In this document: positions 1,751-49,354 of the stretch, piece after piece
Layout: every line of letters starts with the position of its first letter
How positions within the stretch are numbered: position 1 is the stretch's first letter
Origin: Escherichia phage PECP20
Length of the DNA stretch: 64,000 nt
Reading direction: 5' to 3' (one strand)
Sequence record: OQ873415.1
The notes under the pieces: model-generated
Databases searched by the model: none
The model's input: the letters and a program-made list of their open reading frames with translations, nothing else
What the model was told of the DNA's origin: nothing
Position numbers and translations under genes: made by a program

Positions 1751-2245
1751 TTAATTAAGGATATTAACCACAGCACTACGTGGAACTACACTAAAATCAC
1801 CTGCATGAACAACGTTCAGAAGTTCAACACCGTCTTCAATCCACTGATCAGTCACCCATCCATTTACTGGACCAGCGAATGGGCGTCGAATTGAAACATA
1901 TTTACACAACAAATCGGTAGGCTCAATAGGCTTAATCAGAGTACCGTACATACAAGCGATATCCATATCAATACAGATATCTTTAACGGGTTCTACTTCT
2001 TCAATCAACAGTTCAAAGTCGGTGCTTGGAAGGGCGGTGGTAGAAATTGTACCATATGAATTTTTAATTTCTAAGAATAACCAAGGGCCTTCAACTTGTT
2101 TGATGAAGTTAACAATAGTGAAACTATTACCTTGAGTGGCACCTAAAATTTCGCAAAACTTTTCATAAGCTCGCACTGAAGCACTGTACCAGTTGATTTG
2201 TTTTTCGTCTTTCAGGATATAAGTAGCCGTAGTATTGATATTCAT
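1751..2245 (-). CDS. hypothetical protein, tandem paralog family member (164 aa)
   Basis: C-terminal VTDQWIEDGVELLNVVHAGDF matches paralog block. Confidence 0.65.
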   Translation of the reverse strand: MNINTTATYILKDEKQINWYSASVRAYEKFCEILGATQGNSFTIVNFIKQVEGPWLFLEIKNSYGTISTTALPSTDFELLIEEVEPVKDICIDMDIACMYGTLIKPIEPTDLLCKYVSIRRPFAGPVNGWVTDQWIEDGVELLNVVHAGDFSVVPRSAVVNILN

Positions 2246-2276: not shown

Positions 2277-2306
2277 ATTATACTCCAACCATCCTTGGTT
2301 GTAAAC
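2277..2306 (-). promoter_or_regulatory. T4-type early promoter (GTTTAC-N18-TATAAT on minus strand)
   Basis: Plus-strand attatactccaaccatccttggttgtaaac between dexA stop and next gene start. Confidence 0.45.
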
Positions 2307-41905: not shown

Positions 41906-42165
41906 TTAAAATATTCTCGCAGTTGGTCAAATCCACCAATATGACTTCCATCAGGAGCAAACACTTGAGGCATAGTCAATCCGACTTGTGATTCACGTCC
42001 AAGCTTAACCAGAAGCTCAGCAATTTTCTCATCATCAAAAACACCTTTTTCTGGCATAACATTAATGAATTCGAATGGCTGTTTCTTAACAGTCAGCAAT
42101 CGTTTCGCATTATCACAATAAATGCATTTATGAATAGTAGAGTCATACCCGTACACTTTAAACAT
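41902..42165 (-). CDS. nrdC: thioredoxin/glutaredoxin NrdC
   Basis: MFKVYGYDS...HKCIYCDNAK near-identical to T4 NrdC as recalled; start at ATG 42165. Confidence 0.9.
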   Translation of the reverse strand: MFKVYGYDSTIHKCIYCDNAKRLLTVKKQPFEFINVMPEKGVFDDEKIAELLVKLGRESQVGLTMPQVFAPDGSHIGGFDQLREYFK

Positions 42166-42571
42166 TATTTTTCCTTTCATCGATTAAATATGCAATGCCA
42201 AATACAATACATGTAATAAAACCTGTGATACAGATAGAAACCAACAACACTGTACCAAAGAACCAAATCAAGTTATCTTTAGTAGTTTGTTTGATATCCA
42301 TCTCACGAATTTCTATAGCTATCGTATCACCTTTATTCAGAAGCGTATAAAACGACGGTGATACACGCCTGTCAAAAACTCGTCCTTGCTCATCTTTATA
42401 GACTGCAATAAATTCTAATTTAGAATATTTTCCTGTAGATTGGCCTGAGATTAATTCCACTACCTCCACAGGAATTACTTTAGTTTCCATGTAAGTATTC
42501 TGGCTGTTCCAAATGAATGGAATAATGGCAAAAACTAAAGCTGCGATAAAACAACGAAGGCTATATCTCAT
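42158..42571 (-). CDS. membrane protein (137 aa)
   Basis: N- and C-terminal hydrophobic helices. Confidence 0.6.
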   Translation of the reverse strand: MRYSLRCFIAALVFAIIPFIWNSQNTYMETKVIPVEVVELISGQSTGKYSKLEFIAVYKDEQGRVFDRRVSPSFYTLLNKGDTIAIEIREMDIKQTTKDNLIWFFGTVLLVSICITGFITCIVFGIAYLIDERKNNV

Positions 42572-42876
42572 TATAATGTTCTCTCAAATTTGTGGAAGCA
42601 TTTACGGCATTTCAATTTCAAGTTATCAGTGGTCCAGTTAACCAGTTGGACTTGGATAGTTCCACATTCCGGGCATGGATGTTTTGCTGCTGATTTGGCA
42701 GCATTTTCACGTCGTTCAACCATTTTCATTATTTCGTTCCATGCTGGAGGAACGAACTCTTCTTCACCGTGGATTTTATCTCGCTGAACAAATTCAATCT
42801 TTGAACTATCGTCAATAAACTTAACCAAGCCATGATTAGTGCTCATATCAATATCCTCTAAAAGACGTAGTTTCAT
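42571..42876 (-). CDS. zinc-ribbon protein (101 aa)
   Basis: CPECG...CRKC pair. Confidence 0.6.
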   Translation of the reverse strand: MKLRLLEDIDMSTNHGLVKFIDDSSKIEFVQRDKIHGEEEFVPPAWNEIMKMVERRENAAKSAAKHPCPECGTIQVQLVNWTTDNLKLKCRKCFHKFERTL

Positions 42877-43826
42877 TATAACACCTCAATGGCATTTCGT
42901 AAACCGTCCGCTTTCGCATTCAGAGTTTTTAACGATTTAGTCTGTTCTTTAATCTGGGCTTCGACTTCTTTCAGACGAGATTTGAGATATTCACGTTCTT
43001 CGCTCAAGTTGTCAACTTTTTCTACTTTAGGTTCTTTAATAGTCTTAAGTTTATACTCGTTAGGGTTCTTCAGCTTAATTCGGGTGCGAGAACTGTATAA
43101 CATTGAACCGTTATCTTCGGATTCGTCGAACGTTTCAACAACATCCATAGTCTCTAACAATGTAATAAGTTTATAAGACAATGAACGAACGGTTTTATTA
43201 TGCTTATTAATTTCTTCAGCTTTCATGGTACCGAGATTACGTGAGTAGTAATAAGGAACCTGGATATCAATTGATAATGATGCGTTACCATTACCGGTCG
43301 GTTTGAATACTGCAGTAACCCAATCTTTAACATGAACTTTATTTGTACGACAATCACCGCCCGTGAATAATTTACGAGAATGTTTAAAAAGCATATTCAC
43401 TTGGTTATTGAATTCACAAGCAAATTTATCAGCGAATTTAGTTTCAGGAATGGTAGATAACCAATCAGCCAAATGAGTCTTTTTAACATCATTAACAATA
43501 GTGAATTCAACCAAATCAGTTTTAGATGTCACAGATTTAATAAAGCTCGGTTTCATAAAGTTTTTAATGTTATCGCGAGCTACAGTAGAAGATAATAAAC
43601 GAGAACGTTTGAACCATTGAAGCAGTGTCCCTAATGAATGAGAATACGCATTCTGAGTATCTTTACAGATATGATTTTCTTGACCTGTGTATGTACCAAA
43701 ATCGCGAAGAATACCACTTACTACATCTCGGTGTGGAACATCAAATCCTAGTGCACCAACAGCGCGCTGGGCACGAACGTTAGCGATAAGACCGGCAAAG
43801 TATTCAATGTAATGTGAACGTGTCAT
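42876..43826 (-). CDS. hypothetical protein with C-terminal coiled coil (316 aa)
   Basis: ORF with own promoter cassette; C-terminal heptad-like region. Confidence 0.7.
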   Translation of the reverse strand: MTRSHYIEYFAGLIANVRAQRAVGALGFDVPHRDVVSGILRDFGTYTGQENHICKDTQNAYSHSLGTLLQWFKRSRLLSSTVARDNIKNFMKPSFIKSVTSKTDLVEFTIVNDVKKTHLADWLSTIPETKFADKFACEFNNQVNMLFKHSRKLFTGGDCRTNKVHVKDWVTAVFKPTGNGNASLSIDIQVPYYYSRNLGTMKAEEINKHNKTVRSLSYKLITLLETMDVVETFDESEDNGSMLYSSRTRIKLKNPNEYKLKTIKEPKVEKVDNLSEEREYLKSRLKEVEAQIKEQTKSLKTLNAKADGLRNAIEVL

Positions 43827-43854
43827 AATATTTTCCTCTCGTTAAGATAGATTT

Positions 43855-43884
43855 ATTATACTCCAACCATCCTTGGTTGTAAAC
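43855..43884 (-). promoter_or_regulatory. T4-type early promoter (GTTTAC-N18-TATAAT)
   Basis: Plus-strand attatactccaaccatccttggttgtaaac, identical to the cassette at 2277..2306. Confidence 0.45.
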
Positions 43885-43888
43885 CGTT

Positions 43889-44848
43889 TTATGATTTTAA
43901 TGCATTCATTGCATTAAAAAGTTTAGAGTACTGCAACTGGAGATTCGTTACAACACTTTGAGCATCACGAAGCTTAGCTTGTGCTTTGTCAAGTTCAACG
44001 GACAGTTGGTCTGCAGTAGCCTTGATTTGGTTGTAATGATAATCTTCGGCCGGAAGAAGGTCATTAGAAACATTTAGTTTTACTGCCGACAGTTTGCACA
44101 CATTTGGCAAACCTTTAAACATACCGGGTTGTGTCGGAGAATATGCGCTTAGAACCTCTGCATTACCGACTGGTGTTGCTGTGATATTGCCTTCGAACGT
44201 TGCATTTTCCTTTTTAAGATTTTGATAGTATTCAGAGTCTTTGTGCCACCATGGCGCAGGAACCTTTTTACCAATAGATACACGAGCCTGGATAGCGATA
44301 TGGCCCTTATTCTTGATAGGGTCGATAATATTAAGCTCACGAGAATAAATTGCTTTAATCTGGTGGATATTATCACCTAAAACTTCTAACGCTTGGTGGA
44401 ATACACGAGCAACGTTATCGTTCTTAGGTTTATACGTGAGAGTGAACTCGTTCTCGCTGATAACCATGATTTCCAACTTATCGTAAGTATATTTCAAATG
44501 TTTCATGTTAATTGCTTGAGGACGAATACGAGAAGCAATGGCCATCAGATTGTTAAGGTTATTCCGGAACTGCTTAGCGAAATATTGTCCTTCACCGCCA
44601 ATACAAAAATTACGAAGTTTCTGTTTGGCTAATAAACGGCTGAACTCACCATTTTTAATGAACTCTTTAACGGGCGTGTTAGTAACACATTCAAATTGAG
44701 TAAACATACGAGAAGTAATCCCATAATACGAACAGACTTCCTCAATCTCTTCAGGAGTTTTTACAGGCATACGGATAGGATTAGGTCCTGGAGTATATGC
44801 GTTCGAGGTAAATTCTTTGATAAGTTCTCTACGTGTAATAAAAGCCAT
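43889..44848 (-). CDS. hypothetical protein with C-terminal coiled coil (319 aa)
   Basis: ORF with own promoter cassette. Confidence 0.7.
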   Translation of the reverse strand: MAFITRRELIKEFTSNAYTPGPNPIRMPVKTPEEIEEVCSYYGITSRMFTQFECVTNTPVKEFIKNGEFSRLLAKQKLRNFCIGGEGQYFAKQFRNNLNNLMAIASRIRPQAINMKHLKYTYDKLEIMVISENEFTLTYKPKNDNVARVFHQALEVLGDNIHQIKAIYSRELNIIDPIKNKGHIAIQARVSIGKKVPAPWWHKDSEYYQNLKKENATFEGNITATPVGNAEVLSAYSPTQPGMFKGLPNVCKLSAVKLNVSNDLLPAEDYHYNQIKATADQLSVELDKAQAKLRDAQSVVTNLQLQYSKLFNAMNALKS

Positions 44849-44874
44849 TTTATATTCCTCATGTTGAAAAATTT

Positions 44875-44904
44875 ATTATACTCCAACCATCCTTGGTTGT
44901 ACAT
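44875..44904 (-). promoter_or_regulatory. early-type promoter (GTACAA variant of the same cassette)
   Basis: Plus-strand attatactccaaccatccttggttgtacat. Confidence 0.4.
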
Positions 44905-45899
44905 CATTCCTTAAGAAGTTTTACTACTTGAATAAGATTAGCTCGTTCTGTTTTATTTTTACCATTTAAGCCTGCTAATCGTGAGATTTCATCGTCAGTC
45001 TGTTGAATAGTTACATTAAGTTCGTTAATCAAAGCTTCAAAGTATTTGATTTGCTCAGCATGTTTTGATTCAAATTTCTGAACCGGAATAACGTCTTGGT
45101 TCAGTTCATCAATAAGGTCTTTAAGAGCATCTTCTTGGTTGATATCGTATTCAACTTCTTTTATTTCTTCAACGAACTCGTTTTTATATCTAACATCTTT
45201 TAGTCCTGGTGCCGGTCCTGAAATCTCTTCTTTAAGAGTACAAACATACCCAATACGGTATTGGATACCGTCTCGCTTGATATCAACTTCGTCGATAAAT
45301 CCGCAATGTTTAAGACCAGAGCCGATTAGGTCAAAATATCCTTGACGTCGTCCTTCAAACGTTACACGAACTACTAAGACAGTTTTGCCAGCGACCTTTT
45401 GAAGCTCACATTTATAAAAGTTCGTTGAACCTGAATAACGTGGATGAGTTTTAAAGTTCATCTGACGATCTAGGCCCATTTGTAAACGTGCTGTTACGGC
45501 CATAAAACGTGTTTGGTTCTCGTTAAGATGAGCAACAATCCATTTCAAAGGCATTTTACCCTGTTCACGACCGAACAAATCAGTACATCCTAGATTACGC
45601 AGGATGTTGTTAGAGTTAATCATCGACAGAACGTTAAGTTTATTCAGCGCGCTGAAGATTCCATCAGCCATTGATTTTCCATAACCTTTACACGCTTTAA
45701 TAAGTGCTCGCGGCAGATTAGTATAGATTTCAGACGGCATATGAAAATCAAATTTACTAGTCAGTAATTGATGAACTTGGATAGCAATTTGCTCGTAATT
45801 AAGTGCTCTGCGATCATTATGGTCTTTAAACCACACTTTAATCTGTGAAGCACATAAACCGTTAATTTCATGTTTTACCGCATCAGATGTAATGCTCAT
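44904..45899 (-). CDS. hypothetical protein with C-terminal coiled coil (331 aa)
   Basis: ORF. Confidence 0.7.
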   Translation of the reverse strand: MSITSDAVKHEINGLCASQIKVWFKDHNDRRALNYEQIAIQVHQLLTSKFDFHMPSEIYTNLPRALIKACKGYGKSMADGIFSALNKLNVLSMINSNNILRNLGCTDLFGREQGKMPLKWIVAHLNENQTRFMAVTARLQMGLDRQMNFKTHPRYSGSTNFYKCELQKVAGKTVLVVRVTFEGRRQGYFDLIGSGLKHCGFIDEVDIKRDGIQYRIGYVCTLKEEISGPAPGLKDVRYKNEFVEEIKEVEYDINQEDALKDLIDELNQDVIPVQKFESKHAEQIKYFEALINELNVTIQQTDDEISRLAGLNGKNKTERANLIQVVKLLKE

Positions 45900-45961
45900 A
45901 ACTATTTCCTCAGATTGAATTGGAACTCAAAACCATTATAACCCGTCCTTGGGTAAAGCGT

Positions 45962-46489
45962 TTATGCGTGAACCGTCTTTAAACGTTCTTCAAATTTCCG
46001 AAGAGTACTAATACGTTCTGCTTTCTGTTTTGTATAGTTTGCAATACGTTCTGAAGTGAGAGCGTATCGTTCGTTTACTGTTTCTTTCATGAAGTCAGGG
46101 ATTTCACGAGAAGCTTTAATTTCATCAAACTTGTCGAGTACTGCCTGGTCTTCAGCGATTAAATTTTCATACATCTCGATATCTTTCTTGATAAACTCGA
46201 TATCTTCCTGGGTTACTTTGGATAAACGAGACGCTTTATCCTTTTTGTACTGCTCGTTAGTTTCACGAGACCAGAATAATGTACGTTTTTTGTTAGTGTT
46301 TTTGTAGACTTCCACAATTCCAACTGAATCGATGATAACAATCCAATTCCAGCGAGATTTGAAAATCTGACCTCCGTCCACGGTAATCTCGTTATCATAA
46401 GCAACGTCATTAAAGAACTTGCTTTGTGCTTCAGATTTAAATTTACCGTCGTTATAATTTACCAGGTTGAAAATATCTTTAGCGTTCAT
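45962..46489 (-). CDS. hypothetical protein (175 aa)
   Basis: ORF preceded by promoter cassette. Confidence 0.65.
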   Translation of the reverse strand: MNAKDIFNLVNYNDGKFKSEAQSKFFNDVAYDNEITVDGGQIFKSRWNWIVIIDSVGIVEVYKNTNKKRTLFWSRETNEQYKKDKASRLSKVTQEDIEFIKKDIEMYENLIAEDQAVLDKFDEIKASREIPDFMKETVNERYALTSERIANYTKQKAERISTLRKFEERLKTVHA

Positions 46490-46516: not shown

Positions 46517-46545
46517 ATAATAACATAACCATAGACCTTGTAAAC
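46517..46545 (-). promoter_or_regulatory. T4-type early promoter (GTTTAC-N17-TATTAT)
   Basis: Plus-strand ataata (46517-46522) and gtaaac (46540-46545); followed by GGAGG. Confidence 0.45.
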
Positions 46546-46973: not shown

Positions 46974-47975
46974 TTATTTCAGTAAAGTTACTTCAGAGAT
47001 TTCCTCCCAACCATCTTTATCGGTTGAAATAAAATCTGCTACATAAAGAGCCGTACGTAATGATACATTGCGAAGACGAGATACATTAGCCTTCATCCAG
47101 GACAATGCTTTATACGTTTCAGCATCAGTCAAGCCACGTTTCTGCATCATATCAGTAGATAATATTACATCTTCAACTCGAACCATAATCTCTTCATTAG
47201 AGTGTACTCCAAGGTCGAGATACACTGAACGAGATACTAAAGCTTGAAGGTGTGGAGCAAGTTTCGAACCCCGTTCTAACTCTTTATCGATATCAACGTT
47301 TGTAATGAAAACGATAGTACCTTCAAACTCAAATTCTTTATCAATACCCTTATCCTCGAGATAAGATGACGCAGTGCTCCAACAAACTTTGCGTTTATCT
47401 CCGGTATCTAATGCTGCTTTAAGAAGGTTCAGGATGTCCATATCTGAGAATACGTCAACGTCATCGATTAAGAGAACGCTGTCTTCATCACGGTTGAGCC
47501 AAAGTTGTTCGTAAAGGCCAATACCGGAGATTTTACCATTAATGCTTTTGTATTTGATGAAACCATTATCATTAGCATTATTAAGTGCTTTATCCAGAGA
47601 ATACGTCTTACCAATACCAGCTGCACCTGAAATAATGAGTGAACGAATTTTGCCATCAATAATGCCATTCGTCATCATGTTCATTACTTTAAAGCGTTTG
47701 TTGATACGAGTTTTCATATCTTCAGTGCTTTCAACAACTGCAACTGGTGACGTCTCAACTCCTTCCATTACGATGTCTGATTTGAAGACCCATACTCCAC
47801 GTTCAGAACCATCAATCATAACGAAAATTTTACCATCACCTAAGTGGGAACATTCAGGATTAAGCTTTGCCGGGAACCATGTCTTTGTGGCAACATAAGA
47901 ACCAGAGATTTCGTTATTACGATAGATACCTTTTTTGATTTGAACGTTGAACATTTTATTCTCCAATTTACTCAT
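46974..47975 (-). CDS. P-loop ATPase (AAA-like) with N-terminal domain
   Basis: 333 aa; Walker A GAAGIGKTY and Walker B LLIDDVD. Confidence 0.75.
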   Translation of the reverse strand: MSKLENKMFNVQIKKGIYRNNEISGSYVATKTWFPAKLNPECSHLGDGKIFVMIDGSERGVWVFKSDIVMEGVETSPVAVVESTEDMKTRINKRFKVMNMMTNGIIDGKIRSLIISGAAGIGKTYSLDKALNNANDNGFIKYKSINGKISGIGLYEQLWLNRDEDSVLLIDDVDVFSDMDILNLLKAALDTGDKRKVCWSTASSYLEDKGIDKEFEFEGTIVFITNVDIDKELERGSKLAPHLQALVSRSVYLDLGVHSNEEIMVRVEDVILSTDMMQKRGLTDAETYKALSWMKANVSRLRNVSLRTALYVADFISTDKDGWEEISEVTLLK

Positions 47976-48364: not shown

Positions 48365-49354
48365 TTATTTATAGTAAGAATTATGATTTTCGAGATAGAC
48401 TTGCTCAAGGAAATCATCCCAGAAACTCATATCTACTTTTTGTTGCATACCATTCTTGGCAGCTTGTTCTGACGCATGTTCAACTTGGTCAACGATATCT
48501 TCTAGGAATTCTTGTACAGTTTTAAACGTATGTTTACCAAGCTTAACATCGAGAATAAATGGAGCATCCTGAAGTGGGTAAACCAGGTCGCCGGTTTTGT
48601 AAATTTCCAATAATTGAAGTCCACCACGACATGCATGACTCAATGCTTTCCAGTCAATACCTTCGTTAGCTTCTGCTTTACGAGCACGTTCACCATAGTT
48701 CTCTTCCAGTTTAACCAGGATAGCATTGAACTCTTTATTGGTTAACGTGTCTTGGAATTTACGGTCTAACAGACTATAGAATGTTTGCTTACCTGTTTTC
48801 TCGTTTTCGGTTTCAACCCATGAAGCAAATTCACCTACAGGTAGAACATTCTTCATATGTGATAAACGAATTACTGCACCATTATCAAAGTATTGTCCCC
48901 ATTCATTAGAACGTTTAAGGGCTTGACGAAGAACAGCCAGTCGAGAACCCTTGACACCGTATTTAGAAGCTTGCTTACGGACGTACCCTAAATAAGATTT
49001 CATGTTAGTGGTATAGAAACGAGACCTGTTATCTTGAATATACTTCCATACATCAGGCAAATCAGATTTAACTACTAGACTTGGTGGAGTATGAAGCATA
49101 TCTAATGCGACGGTTTCACCATCTGCAGCTAGTTTAAAGAAATATTTGAGACTATATAACTCATGGTCTACGTCGTCTTTTGTGTTCTTAGAAGATGTGT
49201 TATTCGTGTTCTTGCTCATATGTTCTTTAACGTTACCGGTCAAAATATCACGAGCATGAGGGACATAAATTTCTTTAAAATCGACGTCAGATTCAGGAGT
49301 AGACGTTCCATAAAGGTGGCTACCAAAGTAGCTTTTCATAATTGTTTTCATCAT
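48365..49354 (-). CDS. nucleotidyltransferase-fold protein (Pol-beta superfamily signature)
   Basis: 329 aa; N-terminal FGSHLYGTSTPESDVDF fits the G[GS]-x9-13-D-x-[DE] minimal NTase motif. Confidence 0.7.
   Translation of the reverse strand: MMKTIMKSYFGSHLYGTSTPESDVDFKEIYVPHARDILTGNVKEHMSKNTNNTSSKNTKDDVDHELYSLKYFFKLAADGETVALDMLHTPPSLVVKSDLPDVWKYIQDNRSRFYTTNMKSYLGYVRKQASKYGVKGSRLAVLRQALKRSNEWGQYFDNGAVIRLSHMKNVLPVGEFASWVETENEKTGKQTFYSLLDRKFQDTLTNKEFNAILVKLEENYGERARKAEANEGIDWKALSHACRGGLQLLEIYKTGDLVYPLQDAPFILDVKLGKHTFKTVQEFLEDIVDQVEHASEQAAKNGMQQKVDMSFWDDFLEQVYLENHNSYYK
48366..48373 (-). promoter_or_regulatory. T4 late promoter core TATAAATA upstream of 48145..48333
   Basis: Plus-strand tatttata about 35 nt upstream of the ATG. 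Confidence 0.45.

Follow-up and report, generated by a model that had tools for sequence, protein, structure and literature searches.

Phage T4 nrdC.5 is an early, non-essential gene. T4 that has lost it fails to grow on E. coli ECOR17, a block that is lifted by deletion of the host gene dsr1, a SIR2-domain defence gene; nrdC.5 expressed from a plasmid restores infection of cells that carry dsr1 (Srikant et al., 2022; PMC9391042). Two T4/T6 genes a few kilobases away also act against host defences: Gp49.2 inhibits OLD (PMC13096335) and NrdC.1 inhibits Septu (bioRxiv 10.1101/2025.11.20.689424). T4-type phages further carry promoter-early stem-loop (PeSL) cassettes, to which a role in gene shuffling has been ascribed (Arbiol et al., 2010, PMC2839356; Comeau et al., 2014, PMC4122927); experiments on their promoter and terminator/attenuator activity, and on the recombination between copies that yields mini-circles, come only from RB49/phi1 (PMC2839356, PMC4122927). 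Here we analyzed a 64,000-nt stretch of Escherichia phage PECP20 (sequence record OQ873415.1; hereafter the window), in which an initial annotation had noted consecutive open reading frames (ORFs) of 316, 319 and 331 amino acids (aa). All three, here called w316, w319 and w331, are present on the minus strand, which carries every gene treated here. They are strongly supported as real genes, and they are very probably highly divergent paralogs of one superfamily to which T4 NrdC.5 also belongs.

The window comes from an RB69-type (Mosigvirus-like) relative of T4. Across the 3-kb region, identity is 99.8% with Escherichia phage CCU7 and 95-99% with many RB69-type phages, and the array lies among typical T4 neighbours, including nrdD, endonuclease VII, the NrdC thioredoxin and the ORFs flanking NrdC. 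Each of the three genes could be assigned to a known T4 family. The w316 protein aligns with T4 NrdC.3 over all 316 aa (56% identity, E 3e-118) and weakly with NrdC.4 (E 5e-5); it falls into PHROG 1435 (E 6e-102), and all of its close homologues bear the precomputed label Pfam PF26897. It also occupies the T4 NrdC.3 slot immediately upstream of nrdC.2, whose homologue starts at the w316 stop codon, and both full-length similarity and genomic slot place it in the NrdC.3 family. The w319 protein matches the Pfam model DUF7235 over its full length and well above the gathering score (400 bits, cut-off 30; E 9.6e-120; residues 15-318 on model positions 1-307), as does T4 NrdC.5 (E 5e-126), and aligns with the latter at 25% identity (E 1e-11). 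In the case of w331, similarity to T4 NrdC.6 (29% identity over 269 aa, E 4e-18) and position directly downstream of nrdC.8 agree on membership of the NrdC.6 family; the protein belongs to PHROG 2257 (E 1e-126) and its homologues bear the precomputed label Pfam PF26899. PHROGs treats the three as separate families with no assigned function, the Pfam labels on their close homologues are likewise three different accessions, and public records describe their relatives as "hypothetical protein" or, misleadingly, as "thioredoxin".

Hints that these families are related were provided by the weak match of w316 to T4 NrdC.4 and by T4 NrdC.3, which aligns with NrdC.4 over 271 residues. We fetched 37 IMG/VR loci with the conserved neighbour NrdC.10 as anchor and searched the resulting 1757 ORFs, with reversed decoys added, using iterated hidden Markov models (HMMs). 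Searches seeded with either the w331 or the w316 family recruited the same ~71 proteins, even after the C-terminal 65 residues had been cut, and the same set was reached from the full-length w319 family at an inclusion threshold of 1e-5. It comprises every NrdC.3-, NrdC.4-, NrdC.5- and NrdC.6-type protein as well as 290-390-aa proteins from the same slot of other T4-like phages. NrdC.8, NrdC.10, NrdC.11 and an adjacent 256-284-aa family were never recruited from these ORFs, and none of the reversed decoys reached E < 0.01. When subfamily alignments were compared with hhalign, with K9/K14 and K5 as intermediate subfamilies, NrdC.3/4 was linked to K9/K14 at 96.7%, K9/K14 to K5 at 96.9%, and K5 to NrdC.6 at 94.2% and to NrdC.5 at 94.6%, the link to NrdC.5 depending partly on the C-terminal region, which is a caveat on paralogy. 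Without the coiled coil, NrdC.3/4 matched NrdC.5 at 79.7%, and four unrelated neighbour families used as controls, including the coiled-coil protein NrdC.8, gave 1.1% or less against every group. Profile-level homology between the subfamilies was thus found independently of the coiled coil and with clean controls, but through links that are transitive.

Sequence motifs are collinear in all subfamilies of the superfamily alignment. They consist of an N-terminal (K)TR..I..F, a helix with F.K.(S/G)..(L)S....A...L.NF, a long helix with F..(F/L)(N/R).N...(I/L)(L/M)...(A/S)(R/K)L..G(D), a proline ahead of the terminal helix and, as the pattern most conserved across paralogs, the helix end L..A(I/L/M)..L. 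This alignment contains no conserved polar or catalytic column, the conserved positions being T, A, L and P. The initial annotation had offered very divergent paralogy as one of two readings; the convergence of the HMM searches, the hhalign links, the collinear motifs and the joint inheritance of promoter and N-terminus described below all speak for it, and we hold it to be very likely. The superfamily, whose T4 members are NrdC.3, NrdC.4, NrdC.5 and NrdC.6, would be confined to T4-like phages of Enterobacterales.

Word-indexed homologue searches with the three proteins returned close relatives only. The w319 subfamily profile, run with HMMER exhaustively against 1.84 billion representatives, returned only its own cluster at database-wide significance, and in tblastn of w319 against a phage collection T4 NrdC.5 was not recovered at database-wide E-values. 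PDB sequence searches with T4 NrdC.5 and the three profiles gave no relative, and NCBIfam gave no match. In the literature we found no functional or family-level statement on nrdC.3, nrdC.4, nrdC.6 or DUF7235, and none relating NrdC.3, NrdC.4 or NrdC.6 to NrdC.5. What is new is modest: the three genes and T4 NrdC.4 form one superfamily with an anti-Dsr1 protein, and this superfamily goes from one copy to three or four in T-even lineages. The genes are otherwise ordinary, being widely sequenced T4-like accessory ORFs with a known type of regulatory cassette. Two further families were considered as relatives and rejected: NrdC.8 (175 aa, with a coiled-coil end), which appeared in one Foldseek match (rank 3) and scored 1.1% or less in hhalign, and the neighbouring 256-284-aa family, which scored below 1%. 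Members of the latter, which is a conserved family (for example L012:12723-13577), usually precede the superfamily copy in single-copy phages (loci L011-L019, L021, L026, L028-L032, L034, L035 and L039).

Table 1. Genes, predicted promoter elements and C-terminal helices of the PECP20 array, with positions in the window.
Feature	Position	Strand	Details
w316	42876-43826	-	316 aa, early gene; T4 NrdC.3 homologue (NrdC.3/NrdC.4 subfamily)
w319	43889-44848	-	319 aa, early gene; Pfam DUF7235 = NrdC.5 family
w331	44904-45899	-	331 aa; T4 NrdC.6 homologue
PeSL-type cassette of w316	43855-43884	-	exact 30-mer; -35 TTTACA 43883-43878, hairpin CAACCA-AGGA-TGGTTG 43879-43864, -10 TATAAT 43860-43855
PeSL-type cassette of w319	44875-44904	-	2 mismatches; -35 TGTACA 44903-44898, same CAACCA-AGGA-TGGTTG hairpin, -10 TATAAT 44880-44875
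Third exact cassette copy	2277-2306	-	41 kb away, upstream of 164-aa ORF 1751-2245
Degenerate cassette relic of w331	45935-45960	-	TTTACC 45957-45952, 11-nt spacer with CCAAGGACGG (ACCC-AAGGAC-GGGT), TATAAT 45940-45935
Early-promoter-like site upstream of NrdC.8 homologue (ORF 45962-46489)	46517-46544	-	TTTACA-16-TATTAT, extended TG, 10/12
Promoter-like site of nrdC.2 homologue (42571-42876)	42875-42903	-	TTTACG-17-TATAAT, extended TG, 10/12; in last codons of w316
w316 coiled-coil-type helix	42882-43004	-	residues ~275-315; heptad score and AlphaFold
w319 coiled-coil-type helix	43895-44053	-	residues ~266-318; heptad score and AlphaFold
w331 heptad-patterned segment	44910-45059	-	residues ~281-330; heptad score and alignment with the terminal helix of other subfamilies

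The three genes had also been described as lying each behind the same promoter block. This is true of w316, which has an exact copy of the 30-mer cassette (coding strand GTTTAC-AACCAAGGATGGTTGGAG-TATAAT), and of w319, which has a copy with two mismatches abutting the w331 stop codon; it does not hold for w331, upstream of which no match within three mismatches was detected and only a relic is present. A 30-mer of this kind is not expected by chance in the window, and the existence of a third copy far from the array (Table 1) makes the cassette a dispersed genome repeat rather than a feature specific to the three genes. In a promoter scan the w316 and w319 cassettes were reported as TTTACA-17-TATAAT (11/12 matches) and TGTACA-17-TATAAT (10/12 matches), respectively. 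The early form TTTACW-N17-TAYWAT of T4/PST is thus matched by w316 and nearly matched by w319. The w331 relic, which contains the CCAAGGAYGG core, departs from this form because its spacer of 11 nt, compared with 17, is too short for a sigma-70-type promoter; it was not reported in the scan of the window and is unlikely to function as a promoter. The same short form of the relic occurs in T4 and JS98-type phages, upstream of nrdC.7 or of the NrdC.6 homologue. Since w331 lacks an intact promoter of its own, it is probably transcribed from the site ahead of the NrdC.8 homologue. Judging by these motifs, w316 and w319 would each be driven by a separate T4 early promoter of the sigma-70 type with a spacer hairpin, and w331 probably rides on the NrdC.8 transcript. 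The promoter-like site of the nrdC.2 homologue falls within the final nine codons of w316 (G-L-R-N-A-I-E-V-L), with the w316 stop codon within TATAAT and the nrdC.2 ATG overlapping; this double use may explain the strong conservation of that peptide in the NrdC.3 family.

The hairpin predicted in the promoter spacer has a 6-bp stem (CAACCA/TGGTTG) and an AGGA loop. Its folding energy was no better than that of shuffled sequence, and we accept it as real because of its conservation and compensatory changes. The CCAAGGAYGG core occurs five times in the window, always on the minus strand and in intergenic positions; 0.11 occurrences are expected by chance. In the window and the fetched loci together, a 5-bp stem without mismatch that encloses an AGGA loop and is followed by a -10 box was found 15 times on the gene strand, never on the other strand, and ~0.1 times in shuffles. 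The stem exists in three compensatory variants, AACCA/TGGTT in PECP20, ATCCA/TGGAT in the JS98 type and CCACA/TGTGG in T4, and in each of these three lineages the cassette is followed by a paralog starting M-T-R. This indicates that promoter and gene have been inherited, and presumably duplicated, as one unit. The cassette copies are near-identical within PECP20, including the one 41 kb away, whereas orthologous copies differ between genomes. Such likeness within one genome would be consistent with exchange among cassettes by recombination or gene conversion, a process put forward for PeSLs, of which it is, together with copy-number variation, an indirect sign. A second tandem pair, 1204-1689 and 1751-2245 (minus strand; 161 and 164 aa), lies downstream of a dexA-like exonuclease. 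A motif at the C-terminus is common to the two proteins (E 3e-10; 44% identity over 36 residues), and a CCAAGGAYGG hairpin stands ahead of each ORF (cores at 1731-1740 and 2289-2298), the same pattern of duplicated genes behind PeSLs.

The C-termini had been noted as heptad-like and rich in Lys, Glu, Leu and Gln, and our measurements bear this out. Using a crude home-made score of a/d positions compared with 200 shuffles, we obtained z values of 4.2 for w316 (residues 279-306; 0/200 shuffles as good), 3.9 for w319 (residues 273-300; 0/200) and 2.6 for w331 (residues 281-308; 1/200). The four residue types make up 0.50, 0.38 and 0.44 of the last 50 residues of w316, w319 and w331, respectively, compared with 0.24-0.28 of the rest of each protein. 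AlphaFold2 models, computed as monomers from 29 sequences for w316 and from a merged 41-sequence alignment for w319, ended in one long helix in both cases (residues 275-315 and 266-318). The predicted local distance difference test (pLDDT) averaged 56-84 in 10-residue blocks of the w316 helix, which is among the few confidently modelled parts of that protein, and 72-85 over residues 281-319 of w319, the only confident part of its model. Hydrophobic heptad periodicity is thus present and a long uninterrupted helix is predicted, as expected of a coiled coil.

Overall the models are of low confidence (mean pLDDT 55 for w316 and 44 for w319), and within that limit the two agree in the succession of elements: five helices at the N-terminus are followed by one long helix, three strands, another helix, more strands, a linker and the terminal helix. 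Because of this low confidence, Foldseek searches of BFVD and PDB returned only self-family matches and noise; the next-best BFVD match of both models was a 329-aa protein of Salmonella phage Melville, at a weak E of 1.4e-2 for w316 and 3.5e-3 for w319. A common layout is probable, in which a helical domain at the N-terminus is followed by a long helix, a small alpha/beta unit and a variable linker, with a heptad helix of ~45 residues at the end. In w319 the linker ahead of the terminal helix (residues ~217-265, ~44054-44200) is hypervariable with indels among orthologues that are otherwise 83-96% identical, and may serve either as a disordered spacer or in determining specificity. The T4 reference nrdC.6 (locus L001, NC_000866, 10040-10130, minus strand) encodes 275 aa, compared with 295 aa in the T4-like relatives L022-L025, and is frameshifted near its 3' end; the lost coiled-coil end (…DDEIFRLSGLSSKAKSEREKLIKIVDLLKS) is intact in another frame just downstream. 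The frameshift reflects either a mutation in the laboratory strain or an error in sequencing.

The number of superfamily copies per phage ranges from zero to four. T4-type phages have four, JS98-type phages three (C6-C5-C4) and PECP20 three (C6-C5-C3); relatives infecting Enterobacter, Klebsiella, Kosakonia, Serratia, Erwinia, Citrobacter and Salmonella have one, and in a few loci the copy is absent or split. Between PECP20 and T4 the paralogs are 25-56% identical, whereas neighbouring genes are 78-83% identical. Among close relatives, the ratio of nonsynonymous to synonymous substitution rates (dN/dS) was 0.16-0.22 for w316, 0.12-0.16 for w319 and 0.12-0.15 for w331, compared with 0.01-0.10 for the neighbours nrdD (0.01-0.02), nrdC.11 (0.01-0.05) and nrdC.8. 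This indicates functional genes under purifying selection that is several-fold weaker than in nrdD or nrdC.11. Growth of the family from one copy to three or four in T4-, RB69- and JS98-type phages would most likely have proceeded by duplication of the promoter-plus-gene unit followed by rapid divergence, and the repeated cassettes may have supplied homology for the gain, loss and reshuffling of copies. Two unusual ORFs were also encountered. P0033 (299 aa; three contigs, the longest 167 kb) is a natural fusion in which NrdC.5-type residues 146-272 (94% identical to T4) are joined to an NrdC.3-type part (~141 to the end) at FNKVN/FNNQVN microhomology, the deletion having taken out the whole of nrdC.4 along with the end of nrdC.5 and the beginning of nrdC.3. 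P0034 (191 aa, on a 2.7-kb ENA contig) is alpha/beta-hydrolase-like with its last ~40 residues 82% identical to w316 263-301, and is probably a chimeric metagenome assembly.

Taken as a whole, the data are best explained, with reasonable probability, by tandem, very divergent paralogs of one superfamily that would act as early oligomeric immune antagonists. In this account the proteins would be produced within minutes of the onset of infection, assemble into oligomers by way of the terminal helix and neutralise host anti-phage proteins by non-enzymatic binding, each paralog being tuned to another target or target variant. The lack of a conserved polar residue in the superfamily favours a binding or scaffolding protein over an enzyme. 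The functional class itself, that of early-made, coiled-coil-oligomerised, non-enzymatic antagonists of host immunity proteins, is suggested by homology and context and is put forward tentatively, its chances being a little short of even. Within it, w319 would be the best candidate inhibitor of a Dsr1-type SIR2 NADase defence, a specific target that is less probable than the class. It is possible, but doubtful, that NrdC.3-6 as a group are lineage-expanded oligomeric immune antagonists with one paralog per defence protein (e.g., Dsr1/SIR2 variants) and with new copies arising and being shuffled by recombination at the hairpin-promoter cassettes.

A number of observations weigh against these interpretations. 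BLASTP found no similarity between any pair of w316, w319 and w331; direct hhalign comparisons of NrdC.6 with NrdC.3/4 and with NrdC.5 gave ~1% each, the K5-NrdC.5 link dropped to 6% without the coiled coil, and the truncated w319 seed did not extend past NrdC.5 in the iterated search. The homology therefore rests on transitive links and iterated profiles, both of which are prone to drift. The low pLDDT values make the fold comparison no more than suggestive, without a confident superposition, and the oligomeric state is derived from a predicted helix in monomer models. On the functional side, the reported phenotype covers T4 NrdC.5 alone and not NrdC.3, NrdC.4 or NrdC.6; at 25% identity, the anti-Dsr1 activity is not simply transferable to w319; and dN/dS values far below 1 give no gene-wide arms-race signal.

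The same values, taken as ordinary purifying selection, would also suit an explanation in which the genes are divergent paralogs that serve not immune evasion but early host takeover or housekeeping, as accessory factors without which the phage can do in laboratory strains, for instance modulators of host transcription, metabolism or the nucleoid. A phenotype has been reported for one member in one phage, and the region also carries the nucleotide-metabolism genes nrdC and nrdD and the AAA/nucleotidyltransferase pair NrdC.10/NrdC.11. However, the sole member tested is directed specifically at a defence gene, no fewer than two genes close by likewise counter host defences, and the wide copy-number variation, the lost or split copies and the marked divergence relative to neighbouring genes form a pattern typical of host-range genes. 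We consider a takeover or housekeeping role unlikely. It is highly improbable that the three proteins are subunits of one hetero-oligomer held together by their similar C-terminal helices, rather than independent effectors: the conservation of the helix end across paralogs and the adjacency and co-expression of the genes would agree with such an assembly, but most T4-like genera have a single copy, the subsets differ (C6-C5-C3, C6-C5-C4, all four in T4), so that one protein must be able to work alone, and T4 nrdC.5 by itself sufficed against Dsr1 when expressed from a plasmid. Least probable of all is the other reading of the initial annotation, that unrelated genes were each captured behind a mobile promoter cassette and that the profile links are artefacts of composition or coiled coils, since, despite the lack of pairwise BLASTP similarity, the separate PHROGs and Pfam families, the unrelated ORFans flanked by PeSL cassettes elsewhere and the unrelated 164-aa ORF behind the same cassette, the links survive removal of the coiled coil, NrdC.8 does not join although it has one, motif order is the same in all subfamilies, and cassette and M-T-R N-terminus are co-inherited across lineages.

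ORFs of this kind are annotated as "hypothetical protein" or wrongly as "thioredoxin" in hundreds of T4-like genomes, including phage therapy candidates. If they form one family with the anti-Dsr1 protein NrdC.5, three to four dark-matter genes in each genome could be tested as candidates for anti-defence and host-range functions, and on the practical side separate Pfam and PHROGs families could be merged into one clan. If the tandem duplication of promoter plus gene followed by fast divergence is correct, it would illustrate a route of gene diversification in T-even phages; if the copies are indeed a shuffled family of antagonists, the array would be the phage counterpart of a diversifying immune-gene family.

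Compared with T4, the locus is partly conserved and partly rearranged. T4 NrdC.3, NrdC.4 and NrdC.6 are uncharacterised early ORFs of the region from nrdC to mobD, with gene order and strand as in the window. Unlike T4, PECP20 has neither an NrdC.4-type copy nor an NrdC.1 homologue, and its NrdC.7 homologue (42158-42571), a probable membrane protein of 137 aa, is displaced to the opposite side of the array, downstream of nrdC.2, whereas in T4 it is found between nrdC.8 and nrdC.6. The displacement of NrdC.7 and the absence of NrdC.1 and NrdC.4 homologues indicate that the region is rearranged relative to T4. On the upstream side are the homologues of NrdC.10 (46974-47975), an AAA/STAND-like NTPase with weak P-loop matches, and of NrdC.11 (48365-49354), an RlaP-type nucleotidyltransferase (PF10127); this pair is highly conserved (~78% identity to T4), in contrast to its fast-evolving neighbours.

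Like published PeSLs, the PECP20 cassettes are repeated in a hyperplastic region ahead of non-essential ORFs. They differ from PeSLs at large in belonging to a subtype, known from sequence, in which the loop is always AGGA, the inner stem is CCA/TGG and the outer stem covaries. Among the proteins, w319 resembles T4 NrdC.5 in matching the same Pfam model over its full length, in its syntenic slot, in being an early gene and in its C-terminal heptad helix, and differs from it in being merely 25% identical. A functional analogy can be drawn with DSAD1, the inhibitor of the DSR2 SIR2 defence (PMC11087589, PMC10973363), which belongs to Bacillus phages, has another target and is likened here by function alone: it blocks the NADase of a defence sirtuin, as NrdC.5 does Dsr1.

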